Part shown: one piece after another, positions 2,319 to 58,865 of the stretch
How the letters are laid out: each line of letters opens with the position of its first letter
How positions within the stretch are numbered: the stretch's first letter is position 1
Source: Nanobdellota archaeon
GTDB taxonomy: Archaea > Aenigmatarchaeota > Aenigmatarchaeia > QMZP01
NCBI GenBank assembly: GCA_018816245.1
Contig: JAHIVW010000003.1
Location: 321,453 to 385,452 of the forward strand
Direction: 5' to 3'
DNA length: 64,000 nt
Translations under genes and position numbers: made by a program
Notes under the pieces: model-generated
Seen by the model: the letters and a program-made list of their open reading frames with translations, nothing else
The model's database searches: none
Told to the model about the DNA's origin: nothing

Positions 2319-3344
2319 TTATTTCTTCAGAAATAATTCGAGTCGTGATTGACCTTTTTTTATTTTCGACAACTTTGCCAGTGAGCTGGAAACCCGTTCC
2401 TCAGAAAAGTCGTGTTCATGAACCAAGAGCTGTTTCACAGCGTCAAGGTCTTGTTTTCCTTTCGGAATGGCGTACTGTTCTGTGGGCGGATGTTTGAAGA
2501 AGTCAAACAAGTCCGCAATACTCATCGGGAAGGCCCACTCAACTGCAGCCTGCAGCGCTGTCGGTGTGGGGTGTTCCTTTACTGCTTTCAGTGCTTTCTT
2601 CGGACCGAATCCCAGAACACCGCCCGCATTATAATCTGTCCCAATTAAGATGCCAAGAAGGATGAGCTGGTCATGAGAGATAGTCAATGATTTCAAAACA
2701 TGGGACAACTGCACGAGCTCGGGAACAACCTCGACGTATAATTCCTTGCGCGGTACTTTCTTTCTTCCGGACACGGTGAGATTGCGGATGAGTCGCTCAG
2801 CACCAAATAATAATGAATCCCAGTCCTGTGACCCAACTGCCCAGACTTTGTTCTCTTGTGCCAACCGGACAGCTTGTGCTTCTCCTTCACTCGGTGCCTG
2901 AATCCACGCCACCCCAAGAGCGCTCAAAAGTTTCTTGGCTTCGTCTGCCATCTCTGGTGTCAGGCGGCTTGTCGCTTGTGCGTACATCCGAATCTTCTCA
3001 ACATCTCCTGTTTTCCGTGCGTGTTCAAGCTGCTCTGCTGCTGCTTCTTTGATCTTCCGTCGCTGGTTGAGGGTGTCCTGCTTCCAGGCGGGGGGTTTCC
3101 CGTCGAACACGTAGACCGGGGTCACCTCTGCTTCAAGGAGCCGAAGTGTCCGGTTAAAGAGTCCGGTCAGATGACTTGTTACCCTCCCTTCACGATCCCG
3201 GAGCGGTTCACCAGTGAACCGATCGCGAATCGTTGCGAGAAACTGGTACATTGTATTGTAGGCATCAATGGCAATGGTGTGACCACGAAGGTCGTCAAAG
3301 GTGATCGGTGTTGCTTCGATGAGTCCTGAGAAAGAGACTCCCAT
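2319..3344 (-). CDS. fen: Flap endonuclease 1
   Basis: MGVSFSGLI...IAIDAYNTMYQFL...GEPLRDREGRVTSHLTGLFNRT...VYVFDGKPP. This is the canonical archaeal FEN1/XPG N and I regions. Confidence 0.95.
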   Translation of the reverse strand: MGVSFSGLIEATPITFDDLRGHTIAIDAYNTMYQFLATIRDRFTGEPLRDREGRVTSHLTGLFNRTLRLLEAEVTPVYVFDGKPPAWKQDTLNQRRKIKEAAAEQLEHARKTGDVEKIRMYAQATSRLTPEMADEAKKLLSALGVAWIQAPSEGEAQAVRLAQENKVWAVGSQDWDSLLFGAERLIRNLTVSGRKKVPRKELYVEVVPELVQLSHVLKSLTISHDQLILLGILIGTDYNAGGVLGFGPKKALKAVKEHPTPTALQAAVEWAFPMSIADLFDFFKHPPTEQYAIPKGKQDLDAVKQLLVHEHDFSEERVSSSLAKLSKIKKGQSRLELFLKK

Positions 3345-46494: not shown

Positions 46495-46502
46495 TTTAAA
46501 TA
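46495..46502 (+). promoter_or_regulatory. TATA-like TTTAAATA ahead of leader A
   Basis: The same octamer occurs at the equivalent place of unit B (complement of 58764-58771). Confidence 0.35.
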
Positions 46503-46529
46503 CTCATTGGTTCTATTACTGTCATCATA

Positions 46530-46890
46530 AAGTAGTGATTAATGATCATCAACCAATCGACTATCCCCTGGTGCGTCCACACGATGTGCCTTTCCCCATA
46601 CCAGAAACCTGTCCGTGACGGATCCGTCAGCGCTTCTTGAGCGCTGAAAACGCGCGGAGCGTGGTTTCGAGCACGGGAGCGGGAGCTCGGTTGACACCAT
46701 ACACTGACCGATGTGGGGCTGTCTTTCGTCGGTCTTGGGTTTTTACGCCTTCTGATTAGAAGGCAGGATACACGTTTGTGTATCCGCGTCCCGGGGGCGA
46801 CAGGATGGTGCACCAGAATGTCGTCCGTCTCAAGCCGGGACCGGATATTCTTCTCGCCAGTGGACTTGAGACATTGGAAAGGAGGCTCCG
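46530..46890 (+). other. Leader A: GC-rich, hairpin-packed non-coding region (candidate structured RNA or long 5' UTR)
   Basis: There is no credible ORF. Perfect hairpins or palindromes lie at 46616-46629, 46628-46646, 46747-46764 and 46766-46785. It ends in GGAAAGGAGG immediately before the ATG at 46891. Confidence 0.35.
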
Positions 46891-47148
46891 ATGTTGGAGT
46901 TTTTCGTCTATCTGTTCACAGTGGTTGGGATCATCTCGACCGCGATCTACGTCCTGCACAGGAAGGAGATCAACGCTGCTCTCAAGAAGCCTCAGGTTCC
47001 CCAGGGGTCGACGACACCTGCGACTCCTAAGGCACCCGAGGACCCGATGACGAAGCTCACGGAAACCCTTGAGCAAGTCGTCAAGCGGGTCGAGACGCTC
47101 GAGGCCACCGCCAAAAATCCGAAGAGCACAGGAGGTGGTGGATCATGA
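46891..47148 (+). CDS. Small membrane-anchored protein (85 aa)
   Basis: Strong SD (GGAGG 6 nt upstream). An N-terminal TM helix, then a Pro/Thr-rich linker and a helical tail. There is a 4-nt overlap with the next ORF. Confidence 0.45.
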   Translation: MLEFFVYLFTVVGIISTAIYVLHRKEINAALKKPQVPQGSTTPATPKAPEDPMTKLTETLEQVVKRVETLEATAKNPKSTGGGGS

Positions 47149-47816
47149 AGACCGTCATTATCGTTCTGGCAGTCCTCGCCATCAGCGCAGTGCTCTTCGT
47201 TGCCTTCGGCGGTGCCGGCCTCAACTTGGGGAAGGTCAACCCGAACCTGTTTGGTGGTGACAAGGCGCCTCTGACGAAGGGTACCCGGTATCCCCTGGCC
47301 AGCCATGTCAAGCTCTACGGAGCAGACATGGTGAACGAGGCGGAAGTGAAGACGATCTTGGAGTCCCGGGCGACCACCGACGACATCACGAACTTGCGAA
47401 AGCTCGTGATGAGGGGGGATCTGGACACAACTACTCGAGCAACAATCGAGAAGATGGTCGGCAGCTCCTACCTCCAGAACGCCAAGGATGCCACAAGCGT
47501 TGGGTTCGCGGTGACGGGGGACGACGGCAACCTAGTCGCCATCTCCGTTGGCGAACGCGACCCACTCCGCCTGATCGTCTACTACCTACTCGTCTCCTCC
47601 GACAAGATGATCGTCTATGATCCGGGAGAGGACGTGCCGGTAGGTACGAGGGGTGACCTTGGCATGGGCCTTATCACCCCGGCCGCCCGTCCTACGGCTG
47701 TCCGGTGGGTGAATGGTGCGGCCATATGTGGTACCCTGAACGCCGTCCCCGTGAGGGAGCATACGAGTATCTTCACCACAATTGACCTGACGACGGACAA
47801 GGTCAAGGGACCCTGA
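47145..47816 (+). CDS. Secreted/anchored hypothetical protein (223 aa)
   Basis: N-terminal hydrophobic helix MKTVIIVLAVLAISAVLFVAF. No motif recognised. The composition is GC-rich. Confidence 0.5.
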   Translation: MKTVIIVLAVLAISAVLFVAFGGAGLNLGKVNPNLFGGDKAPLTKGTRYPLASHVKLYGADMVNEAEVKTILESRATTDDITNLRKLVMRGDLDTTTRATIEKMVGSSYLQNAKDATSVGFAVTGDDGNLVAISVGERDPLRLIVYYLLVSSDKMIVYDPGEDVPVGTRGDLGMGLITPAARPTAVRWVNGAAICGTLNAVPVREHTSIFTTIDLTTDKVKGP

Positions 47817-57581: not shown

Positions 57582-57613
57582 GAGAGCCTTCTATTGGGAG
57601 CGGAGATTTATAA

Positions 57614-57655
57614 GATAACGGTGTTAATTTGGTATGATGATATAACGGTGTTATA
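57614..57655. repeat. Palindrome family copies 4a (GATAACGGTGTTAAT, degenerate) and 4b (TATAACGGTGTTATA)
   Basis: Copy 4a is at 57614-57628 and copy 4b at 57641-57655. Copy 4b is followed by TTGAAAAGAAC. Confidence 0.7.
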
Positions 57656-57656
57656 T

Positions 57657-57698
57657 TGAAAAGAACCCAGAGCACGCGAGAAGGTCTCACGCACTCTG
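57657..57698 (-). terminator. Imperfect hairpin plus TTCTTTTC terminator-like element after the 57720-58418 ORF
   Basis: On the minus strand the sequence reads CAGAGTGCGTGAGACCTTCTCGCGTGCTCTG, then GGTTCTTTTC, then palindrome 4b. Confidence 0.4.
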
Positions 57699-57719
57699 AG
57701 TTGTCGGCGACGTGGCCGG

Positions 57720-58418
57720 CTAGTCCTCGTCTTCGAGGTCCGTCTCAGGGATCGGAGGCATCATGAAGTGCACTGTATGGGATCTGATATGCTGCTCCAC
57801 GAAGTGTGAGAACAGGGCGATGCCGCACCTGAGATCGCGCTCCCTGAGCAGCTGGATGATTCCCGCGAAGATCAGTTGCCCCGTGGCGTCGGGGTGCCGC
57901 ATGATCTGCTGGATGTCCCGGCATGCCTCCTCGCTGAGCTGACGCTGGTTCCCTCGCTCCATGTCGCCGACGGACTTGAAGAGATCAGTGAGGTTGATCG
58001 GGAGCGGAGCGTACGGCGCCAGGAGCTCGGTCATGAGGGAGAACTCGGCTACCTCATCAAGGATGTCTGGAGTAACACCGAGGCAGTGGTTCACGATGGT
58101 GGGTAGTGTTGCTCCCTCACGCCTGTATTTATCCACCATACCTGTCACACGCTTCCTGAGTTCGTTCCGCTTGTCGCTCCAGTCGGCGCGATTGAATCCC
58201 TCCACTTGAATGGGAAGCTCGTTCTCAGTGCGTTTCTTGAGGCCGACCGTTGAGAACCAGATGCTGAGGAGGTGCTCTGATTCCTCGGTATGGGCGTCAT
58301 CGCCGTTGACGACCTCTGCCGCGGCCTGTTCCCAAGACCCGTTCTGCCAGATGTCTTCGGTTCTGATGATCAGGTCGAGTTCGAGCTCTCTCTCACGTAA
58401 CGTTTTCTTCGCTGCCAT
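57720..58418 (-). CDS. Hypothetical acidic protein (232 aa)
   Basis: Long ORF with a purine-rich GGGAGGAAGAAAGGAAA upstream of the ATG. No motif recognised. Confidence 0.5.
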   Translation of the reverse strand: MAAKKTLRERELELDLIIRTEDIWQNGSWEQAAAEVVNGDDAHTEESEHLLSIWFSTVGLKKRTENELPIQVEGFNRADWSDKRNELRKRVTGMVDKYRREGATLPTIVNHCLGVTPDILDEVAEFSLMTELLAPYAPLPINLTDLFKSVGDMERGNQRQLSEEACRDIQQIMRHPDATGQLIFAGIIQLLRERDLRCGIALFSHFVEQHIRSHTVHFMMPPIPETDLEDED

Positions 58419-58763
58419 TTGGCGTTTCCTTTCTTCCTCCCAGAACAGAAAACCCGGCAGTGTAGGAGGGAGTGCTGCCGGTGTTGTGTGATTAGTTCAG
58501 AATAGGTTGATTCTCGTTGGGAAGACGAGCGTCACTATAAGGGTGTCTTTGGGGGTAAACGCGGATTTCGTCGGGGGTTTCATTAATTGGCCTCCTCTCC
58601 AATGCGAGACTGTCGAAAGACAGTCTCAAGACGACAAAATTCGTCCACCACTCGCGCTCCCGCTCCTCTTGGTGACGTGCGTGCATTTCTGGATTCTGCA
58701 ACGTTCTTGCGGAACGTGGGAACTGGTGATGTGAGTTGTGAACTTACGAGTTAGTAGTGGAAT
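58419..58763 (-). other. Leader B: GC-rich hairpin-rich non-coding region homologous to leader A
   Basis: Hairpins at 58454-58481 and 58606-58627 (9-bp stem; GAAA loop on the plus strand, TTTC in the leader sense). Three collinear blocks are identical to leader A (see findings). The only ORF here (58492-58701) has no counterpart in leader A. Confidence 0.35.
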
Positions 58764-58771
58764 TATTTAAA
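58764..58771 (-). promoter_or_regulatory. TATA-like TTTAAATA (minus strand) ahead of leader B
   Basis: The plus strand reads TATTTAAA. This is the same octamer and relative position as in unit A. Confidence 0.35.
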
Positions 58772-58851
58772 CCTTATCCCGGCCCGTTCCTTGGCAAACC
58801 ATTAAATGTCCAGATGATTCTTAGGAAAGAGGTACCAGAAAGAACTCTTAG

Positions 58852-58865
58852 TATAACAGTGTTAT
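58852..58865. repeat. Palindrome family copy 5 (TATAACAGTGTTAT)
   Basis: Preceded by AGAAAGAAC. Its last bases contribute the AT of the helicase ATG at 58864. Confidence 0.75.

Follow-up and report, generated by a model that had tools for sequence, protein, structure and literature searches.

What do two leader regions of one archaeal genome have in common when the genes that follow them are unrelated? This question is raised by a 64,000-nucleotide (nt) stretch of DNA from a Nanobdellota archaeon, hereafter the window, which corresponds to C4:321453-385452 of an 886-kb genome assembled in six contigs (51% G+C, rated 88% complete). Within the window, a leader on the plus strand (unit A, 46503-46890) and a leader on the minus strand (unit B, 58419-58771) had been presented in a preliminary description as homologs that share three collinear identical blocks with conserved spacing. 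Here, we show that the module common to A and B is present in multiple copies, is strictly oriented, is confined to this genome and precedes cargo genes that are mutually unrelated. The two leaders, with a shared sequence of roughly 150-250 nt, appear to belong to an undescribed, lineage-restricted leader family, whose mechanism is inferred. The best reading, which we hold with a little more confidence than doubt, is that of a lineage-specific cis-acting leader RNA recognised by a common predicted factor.

The match between A and B was re-examined first at the level of its blocks. Block 1, GGAGCGGGAGC, is located at 46676-46686 in A and at the complement of 58656-58666 in B, and block 2, CTGTCTTTCG, at 46719-46728 and the complement of 58614-58623, respectively, exactly where they had been reported. 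The two blocks are separated by 32 nt in both leaders. When exact runs of 8 nt or more are counted, the first two blocks share a diagonal and add up to 21 identical nt, compared with a maximum of 12 nt in 400 dinucleotide shuffles of B, while the 11-nt run alone turned up in 2.5% of these shuffles. Block 3, ATCCGCGT, is also found at the positions assigned to it (46782-46789 in A, complement of 58559-58566 in B), at the expected 53 and 47 nt from block 2, but its occurrence is at chance level. Indeed, between two regions of this size 2.0 shared 8-mers are expected by chance, with a probability of 0.78 for at least one. Furthermore, ATCCGCGT is missing from all the other copies described below, and in B it falls within a 28-codon open reading frame (ORF), downstream of the real third block and out of order relative to the latter. 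Since all these properties are those of a fortuitous 8-mer, block 3 is a chance resemblance. The real third block had been missed. This is CATTGGARAGGAGGC (CATTGGA[A/G]AGGAGGC), which is identical at 14 of 15 positions between A (46872-46886) and B (complement of 58590-58604) and constitutes the Shine-Dalgarno region right before the first start codon of both units. The collinear three-block homology therefore stands for blocks 1 and 2, with the Shine-Dalgarno region in place of block 3. The conclusion that conservation is at the nucleic-acid and not at the protein level is also borne out, with the same module present at no fewer than nine genome sites before unrelated genes. Collectively, the A and B leaders are related at the nucleic-acid level, and more strongly than the preliminary description could know.

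Copies, layout and cargo of the leader family

A combined pattern returned four sites in the genome, and nhmmer with two covariance models (CMs) extended these to nine. Giving each position as that of the first G of the G block, and the score with CM R2, the nine clear copies are B (C4:380118, minus strand, 75.5 bits), C (C4:434683, minus, 69.4 bits), D (C4:461669, minus, 68.1 bits), A (C4:368128, plus, 60.5 bits), F (C6:108470, plus, 52.3 bits), G (C4:506809, minus, 50.0 bits), J (C6:94097, minus, 47.2 bits), E (C6:97846, minus, 43.8 bits) and K (C4:452295, minus, 30.0 bits). Three distant members, N1 (C4:435656, minus), N2 (C4:82575, plus) and N3 (C6:25483, plus), were recognised through the GTCTT/AAGAC repeat or a weak model hit. 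The family is thus composed of nine clear and three distant members, dispersed over contigs C4 and C6.

All copies present the same order of elements and face a downstream start codon. A TATA box is present in every copy, 31-60 nt before the 5' strand of a predicted helix, P1. It is followed by a C/A-rich 5' box of the form ..AUCA(C/U)C..CGUUCC.., then by an insert of 40-110 nt that has no similarity between copies, and then by the G block, GGGAGCGGGAGCGYGG-UGGUGG, i.e. (GGAGCG)2-YGG-UGGUGG. Next come a spacer of constant length, gapless or one base off in seven of the nine copies, and the motif (C)UGUCUUU(C/U)G with GUCU(U/C) 4-5 nt later. In alignments A4 and A5, GTCTTT and GTCTY occupy the same columns in 7/9 copies. 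A GGAGG-type ribosome-binding site is located 5-10 nt further and precedes the start codon, again in seven of the nine. The two exceptions are A, which carries an extra 128 nt, and K, where at least ~450 nt contain no credible ORF. The conserved module adjoins the ribosome-binding site and lies 100-170 nt downstream of the TATA box, which itself stands ~170-400 nt before the start codon (more in K). As TATA boxes across the genome are most often found 20-50 nt ahead of the ATG, leaders as long as these are an exception here. Between copies, the TATA region shows nothing conserved beyond being a TATA box, and neither terminal repeats nor target duplications were noticed at the copies.

A second motif, GTCTTT(T/C)GT(C/T)TGTCTT(T)CC, was observed at four sites (C4:452251-452275, C4:435656, C4:82575 and C6:25534). 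On the other strand it reads GGAAAGACAGACAAAAGAC, and it is the complement of UGUCUUUC of the main family. Three of these four sites belong to leader-like units, each equipped with a TATA box and a 5' box of its own, namely K, N1 and N2, where the exact complement of the GUCUUU motif stands in tandem (CGAAAGACA, GGAAAGACAG) at the equivalent place.

The proteins encoded behind the leaders are mutually dissimilar by blastp, and for 11 of the 13 scanned ones Pfam offers no family. The other two are an acyl carrier protein (ACP) behind copy G (C4:506478-506729, PP-binding, E = 1e-11) and a 58-residue product of unit C with a weak resemblance to winged helix-turn-helix proteins. Since the cargo genes are not paralogous, the similarity belongs to the leader and not to a duplicated gene with its upstream region. 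The ACP is present in 4 of the 40 genomes of the family, which designates it as an accessory gene in these archaea. As the B protein has no relatives and the B unit is absent from the nearest sampled relative (see below), the units are accessory, and the leader marks accessory, lineage-specific genes.

The family was then sought outside this genome. No known RNA family accounts for it: with Rfam release 15, only a tRNA passes the gathering threshold over the whole window, and permissive scans of both leaders reached at most 15.5 bits against thresholds of 35-59, without a match among 4227 families. CM R1 gave only chance-level scores on 60 relatives. Similarly, CM R2, which scores 30-75 bits on the nine sites, did not exceed 24 bits, i.e. 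chance level, anywhere in 39 genomes of the same family. The pattern GGAGCGGGAGCG-N3-4-TGG-N15-40-GTCTTT retrieved 44 single bacterial or chance matches in one genome per prokaryotic species, and in IMG/VR viral contigs two scans gave only chance-level matches (at most 25 bits with R1 and 13 bits with R2). The search of metagenomes for more members, which had been suggested for the A/B pair, returned 49 pattern matches in JGI metagenome contigs, none above 22 bits with R1. On the other hand, a Logan assembly contig of SRR10598177 contains the B region without any difference in leader or gene; its two differences are at the far upstream end of the alignment and it represents the same population. 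Within the limits of these searches, the family so far seems confined to this genome: additional homologs of A and B exist as paralogous copies, and a diverged homolog was not found outside.

Predicted pairing and competing explanations

In each of the nine leaders, the minimum free energy (MFE) fold contains P1, a composite helix of 15-22 bp with small internal loops, in which the 5' box is paired to the G block and the flanking UGGUGG. A P1-type pairing, involving the presumed first 5-30 nt of the transcript and the G block, is also predicted in two of the three distant members, N1 and N2, in quite different sequence (CCUCAG.ACAC/GUGU..UUGAGG and CAGUCACUCA/UGAGUGGCUG, respectively). Indeed, the outer pairs of P1 vary by copy, as CCACCA/UGGUGG, CAAUCGA/UCGGUUG, CAUCGA/UCGAUG, CCAUCA/UGAUGG, UCACCUC/GGGGUGA and the above CAGUCACUCA/UGAGUGGCUG, and G-U pairs are recurrent (CGUUCC with GGAGCG). 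When duplex energies were computed for all 12 x 12 combinations of the two strands among the members, cognate pairs averaged -25.4 kcal/mol, as against -21.7 kcal/mol for swapped ones (permutation P = 0.0003). The leaders also fold better than their dinucleotide shuffles, with a mean z of -2.2 over the nine (range -0.6 to -4.6).

A second predicted hairpin, P3, involves block 2. The local folds around this block that had been noted are both present, a 9-bp hairpin in B (58606-58627) and a GACCGA/TCGGTC stem in A (46706-46711/46729-46734), but they are not conserved as such, the hairpin occurring in B-F and not in A, G or J. It is perfect in B and covaries in C, D, E and F. On the model-based alignment A5, 73% of the cells of P3 are paired, compared with 23-43% for slid partners, and its covariation (0.267) is above that of shuffles (0.175), exceeding 495 of the 500 (5/500). 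With 15 G-U pairs against 6 A-C mismatches, P3 favours sense RNA over a DNA palindrome. As to the covariation that a common fold should display, P3 and the cognate pairing of P1 give signs of it among the paralogs of this one genome, and a consensus fold of the 3' module is lacking. According to these models, the shared structural feature would be one long-range helix, P1, and the remaining conservation would consist of sequence and spacing.

The 3' tail of 16S rRNA, GGAUCACCUCCU, is repeated in the 5' box, over 9 nt in K (AUCACCUCC, C4:~452370) and 8 nt in J (AUCACCUC, C6:~94150). The likeness is reduced to the 6 nt AUCACC in B (window 58724-58729) and C (C4:~434790). The partner strand of this 16S-like box is correspondingly Shine-Dalgarno-like (GGUGG, GGGGUGA), and no functional consequence could be demonstrated. 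Pairing of the 5' box or the GUCUUU region with the Shine-Dalgarno site, by which a translational riboswitch or an RNA thermometer would mask this site, did not rise above shuffles in the units (P 0.05-0.9).

If the family is a cis-acting leader RNA, ordinary archaeal TATA promoters would drive leaders of ~130-370 nt ahead of nine or more transcription units, which are unrelated and for the most part orphans. The 5' box of such an RNA would pair with the G block, so that P1, which has moderate support, would anchor the transcript's 5' end at the conserved module and loop out the insert. In about one copy out of two, the GUCUUU repeats would form P3, with similarly moderate support, 5-10 nt ahead of the ribosome-binding site. 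The G-rich and U-rich blocks, held at fixed spacing, could be where a single trans-acting factor docks, most probably an RNA-binding protein, and this factor would jointly set the stability or the translation of the whole group of accessory mRNAs. Such a family would represent a post-transcriptional regulon for lineage-specific genes, and P1 might also bury the 5' end and shield the mRNA from 5' decay. Several properties speak for the RNA. Besides the strict orientation to the gene and the excess of G-U pairs, the distant 5' box and G block stay complementary while their sequences change, and the module is located beside the ribosome-binding site and far from the TATA box, as is expected of an RNA-level signal and not of an archaeal transcriptional operator.

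Several results weigh against this reading. Both the transcription start and the leader itself are deduced from TATA boxes, and no candidate for the binding factor was identified. All copies come from one genome; their similarity may partly be due to common descent, and the covariation is that within paralogs. Compared copy by copy with shuffled upstream sequences, P1 is clear in no more than two of them, D (P = 0.004) and G (P = 0.02), with values of 0.1-0.8 elsewhere (Fisher ~0.005). A swap test restricted to the outer helix of the nine core copies was not significant (P = 0.19), because most of them share CCACC/GGUGG. P3 is missing in A, G and J although the sequence motifs are kept. The other unfavourable points are best considered together with the rival that they support.

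According to this serious rival, the module is a DNA-level operator array, in which the GGAGCG GGAGCG and GTCTT repeats, placed between promoter and start codon, would be the target of a single transcription factor that hinders or helps RNA polymerase at each of the accessory units. The linear distance between block 1 and GTCTTT is exact in seven of the nine copies though the intervening sequence and the predicted fold differ (alignment A4). The start of block 1 is 43 nt from CTGTC, or about four DNA turns, and the GTCTT repeats have a period of 10-12 nt, which fits recognition of double-stranded DNA, as does the tandem arrangement of the GGAGCG hexamer. In K, N1 and N2, the repeats stand at the equivalent place in the opposite orientation (AAAGAC...AAAGAC). 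Moreover, RNAalifold finds no consensus fold in the conserved 3' module alone, and both strands show a similar excess of folding, the antisense strands also beating their shuffles (mean z -1.8). On the other hand, an operator would hardly require the constant orientation to the gene, nor a position that adjoins the ribosome-binding site and is 100-170 bp away, on the downstream side, from the one TATA box that can be recognised. In archaea, the usual targets of repressors are the TATA box and the start site. A protein site should also keep its sequence, whereas the 5' box and the G-block flank are complementary through copy-specific sequences, with the above significance of cognate pairing, and the preference of P3 for G-U over A-C is that of RNA. 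Overall, we consider the operator unlikely, though deserving of attention.

Less probable still is that the family only reflects history, i.e. that a promoter-leader segment was copied before new genes and is now decaying without a shared regulatory function. Its confinement to one genome, the accessory nature of its cargo (the B unit absent from the nearest relative, the ACP in few genomes, the 232-residue B protein without relatives) and the rearranged aspect of A, with its 128-nt extra segment and the 18-nt deletion of P3 next to the Shine-Dalgarno site, are all in line with such a scenario. However, the decay would have to be very uneven: insert and spacers are randomised, whereas short blocks are near-identical at the same spacing in up to nine copies, the spacer has no indels even though its sequence is saturated, and the complementarity of cognate strands is kept despite their differing sequences. 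This uneven decay and the kept complementarity indicate selection. Under any of the other readings, copying of a promoter-leader segment is the most likely way in which the family arose.

The tandem complements of K, N1 and N2 could also be taken to define two complementary leader classes, with K-type RNAs (CGAAAGACA, as opposed to UGUCUUUCG of the B type) acting in trans by pairing with the P3 loop and 5' half of the others over a perfect 8-9 nt. We regard this as a long shot; if true, it would amount to an RNA-RNA network over the lineage-specific gene set of a DPANN archaeon.

A leader peptide, in which the blocks encode a short peptide whose translation regulates the downstream gene, is highly improbable. 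Most copies do have short ORFs running through the G block, with one frame common to B, C and E (…RERE(R)(G)WW…). But, as had been recognised for A and B, no frame is conserved, the G block being read as ERER in B, C and E, GAGA in A and D and GSGS in J; start codons are not conserved either (the ATG of C corresponds to ATC in E), the ORFs lack a preceding Shine-Dalgarno site and their stops are at different places. A leader-peptide attenuator was rejected on the same grounds, with three frames across the conserved block and no conserved starts or stops. Finally, that the A-B match is mere coincidence between two GC-balanced intergenic regions can practically be dismissed: block 3 and two further shared 8-mers are indeed at chance level, but blocks 1 and 2 on their single diagonal beat all 400 shuffles and seven more copies carry the same blocks.

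Other identities were examined and rejected. A metabolite riboswitch can be discarded, as there is no conserved core within P1, whose enclosed region (40-110 nt) is dissimilar between copies; the conserved sequence lies in and after the P1 3' strand, and the cargo genes share no pathway or transport function. A miniature inverted-repeat transposable element does not fit, as conservation is lowest between the inverted strands, the conserved part reaches beyond them and all copies face their gene. An attC-like site was discarded in view of the dispersion over C4 and C6 and the location at the 5' end of units with their own TATA box.

Units A and B and their genomic setting

In unit A (plus strand), the presumed leader promoter is the TATA box TTTAAATA at 46495-46502, as read from the sequence. 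It lies 396 nt before the ATG, which, given the genomic norm of 20-50 nt, implies an unusually long putative leader. The 5' box, GATCATCAACCAATCGACTATCCCC, spans 46544-46568, the place at which AUCA(C/U)C recurs in other copies, and its CAATCGA (46554-46560) is the predicted 5' strand of the outer P1. In the MFE fold, CAAUCGA pairs with UCGGUUG and UCCCC with GGGA(G). The variable insert inside P1 (46569-46674) has hairpins of its own and is not conserved between copies. It is followed by the predicted P1 3' strand (46675-46693), composed of the G block GGGAGCGGGAGC, which contains block 1, and TCGGTTG; the R2 hit covers 46670-46749. Block 2 and the second GTCTT repeat form CTGTCTTTCGTCGGTCTT (46719-46736; alignments A4 and A5), without a hairpin of the B type.

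The 128 nt that follow (46737-46864) are specific to A and have no counterpart in B. They include a T5 tract (46737-46746) and two perfect hairpins (46747-46764 and 46766-46785), the second of which receives block 3. Beyond them, CTTGAGA, the Shine-Dalgarno block CATTGGAAAGGAGGC and the ATG at 46891 are found within 46865-46893. This stretch is equivalent to CTTGAGAC...CATTGGAGAGGAGGC of B minus 18 nt of the B hairpin (the 14/15 identity plus an adjoining 8-mer). Since A has both gained 128 nt and lost 18 nt of the hairpin near the Shine-Dalgarno site, it appears to be a rearranged copy. Its cargo consists of an 85-residue membrane-type protein (46891-47148) and an overlapping 223-residue protein (47145-47816), both without a Pfam match.

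Unit B (minus strand) has a more compact leader. Its TATA box, read from the sequence as the same TTTAAATA, is at 58764-58771, and its 5' box CACATCACCAGTTCCCACGTTCC, the P1 5' strand according to the MFE folds, at 58711-58733. In the predicted P1 of B, CAUCACC pairs with GGUGGUG, and GUUCC and CGUUCC pair with two GGAGC(G) repeats. The variable insert occupies 58667-58710. The predicted P1 3' strand (58645-58666) comprises the G block GGAGCGGGAGCG, with block 1, and CGAGTGGTGG, in the region that gives the best R2 score of the family. A small hairpin, P2 (GACGA AUUUUG UCGUC, 58630-58645), is common to B and C and not to other copies. P3, GAGACUGUC UUUC GACAGUCUC, spans 58606-58627 and includes block 2 as well as both GUCU(U/C) repeats. 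The Shine-Dalgarno block CATTGGAGAGGAGGC (58590-58604) and the ATG of the first ORF (58581-58583) complete the leader (58581-58604).

Directly behind the leader of B, a 28-codon ORF, MKPPTKSAFTPKDTLIVTLVFPTRINLF, is predicted at 58497-58583, with block 3 inside. It has the strongest ribosome-binding site of the unit, GGAGAGGAGG, and may encode a real micro-protein or be a regulatory ORF. Between this ORF and the next gene, a hairpin CCGGCAG...CUGCCGG followed by GUUUUCUGUUC (58443-58481) resembles a terminator in its sequence. The cargo itself is a 232-residue orphan protein (57720-58418) with no Pfam match; among 5.8 billion proteins, it has no relative but itself.

The whole B unit, i.e. leader, 28-codon ORF and orphan gene (~1.2 kb, window 57582-58863), is situated between the gene for RNase P p29 and that for Lhr. 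On contig CAYJVH010000030.1 of the nearest relative sampled (Lhr 64% identical), the two genes adjoin each other in divergent orientation, 158 nt apart, and no B unit is present. Since p29 and Lhr are adjacent there, the B unit seems to be an insertion or lineage-specific gain here, or else a loss in the relative.

The B unit is bounded by copies of the ATAACNNTGTTAT palindrome. Sites of the ATAAC(N2)TGTTAT type are located at window 57612-57628, 57641-57655 and 58852-58865, by the p29 TATA boxes and just before the Lhr start. Half sites, AATAACACTGTT and ATATAACACTG, are present at equivalent places in the 64%-identity relative (2960-2972 and 3069-3079 of its contig, L136). Because the motif also accompanies p29 and Lhr in this relative, in the form of half sites, it has the appearance of a conserved protein site tied to promoters, not of a cassette boundary. 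The contig of the relative further carries a MazE-antitoxin/PIN-domain gene pair just past p29 (L136 1515-2159), without a counterpart at that place in the window.

The archaeal character of the window is evident from MCM, RNase P p29, DUF63, Lhr and the TATA-type promoters. The closest public Lhr proteins carry the name Candidatus Aenigmatarchaeota, and as the nearest of them is only 64% identical, the lineage is poorly sampled. Outside the window, the Rfam archaeal small-subunit rRNA model matches C1:12757-13025 and stops at C1:13025, right after AAGUCGUAA. Since the canonical 16S 3' end (…GUGCGGCUGGAUCACCUCCU) is located ~250 nt past this point, the 16S gene seems to contain an insertion or intron in its 3' minor domain.

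Comparison with known systems and biological meaning

The family resembles bacterial cis-regulatory leaders, such as riboswitches, ribosomal-protein leaders and CsrA/RsmA-bound leaders, in that an oriented element is placed between the promoter and the ribosome-binding site of several units and a closing helix, here the predicted P1, is built from distant strands. In CsrA targets, purine-rich GGA-containing repeats are found near the Shine-Dalgarno site, and the GGA-containing repeats of the present family are similarly close to it; to our knowledge, CsrA is not known in archaea. In contrast to the bacterial regulon leaders, the host is an archaeon, P1 encloses no core, the cargo consists mostly of orphans without a common pathway, and the family is found in one genome and has no Rfam match.

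A second parallel is offered by the JUMPStart/ops elements, which are present in the leaders of RfaH-dependent accessory operons of enterobacteria; the ops core is the 8-bp GGCGGTAG, read on the non-template DNA strand by a NusG paralog (PMC6775461). Both systems have a short conserved element in an unusually long untranslated leader, before several unrelated accessory or horizontally acquired clusters, and the element is thought to recruit one dedicated factor after initiation. Unlike ops, the module described here extends over ~70 nt, and a segment complementary to it is located at the 5' end. The genome contains a single Spt5-NGN gene with no detectable paralog, and the best match to GGCGGTAG is 6/8, i.e. 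at chance level; recruitment of the ops/RfaH type was rejected on these grounds.

Mobile promoters and promoter reuse in bacteria, reportedly treated by Matus-Garcia et al. in 2012, are comparable in that the same upstream segment is duplicated before non-homologous genes of one genome. The difference resides in the part that is conserved, which here is the presumed transcribed leader, with kept spacing and complementarity, and not the TATA region. In phage T7, RNase III processing signals are repeated before genes, and the likeness is that of a folded element with a long imperfect helix upstream of unrelated genes. Unlike T7 signals, the present leaders belong to a genome in which no RNase III gene is detectable (PF14622 without a match, while control genomes respond; the genome is 88% complete), and an RNase III processing stem was rejected for this reason. 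P1 also shows no evident bulge-helix-bulge motif of the kind used by the archaeal splicing endonuclease.

Archaeal cis-regulatory RNA families are scarce, and we know of none described in DPANN archaea, which have tiny genomes with few recognisable regulators and many genes without an assigned function. The present family is known from one genome, and its transcription and its partner are predicted from sequence. The repetition of one leader design over nine to twelve units that encode almost only lineage-specific small proteins would mark these orphan genes as a co-regulated set. The leader would thereby give a handle on genes that are beyond homology-based annotation, through the questions of when they are co-expressed and what binds the leader. 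Furthermore, the family would offer a concrete case of how newly acquired or newly born genes get wired into expression.

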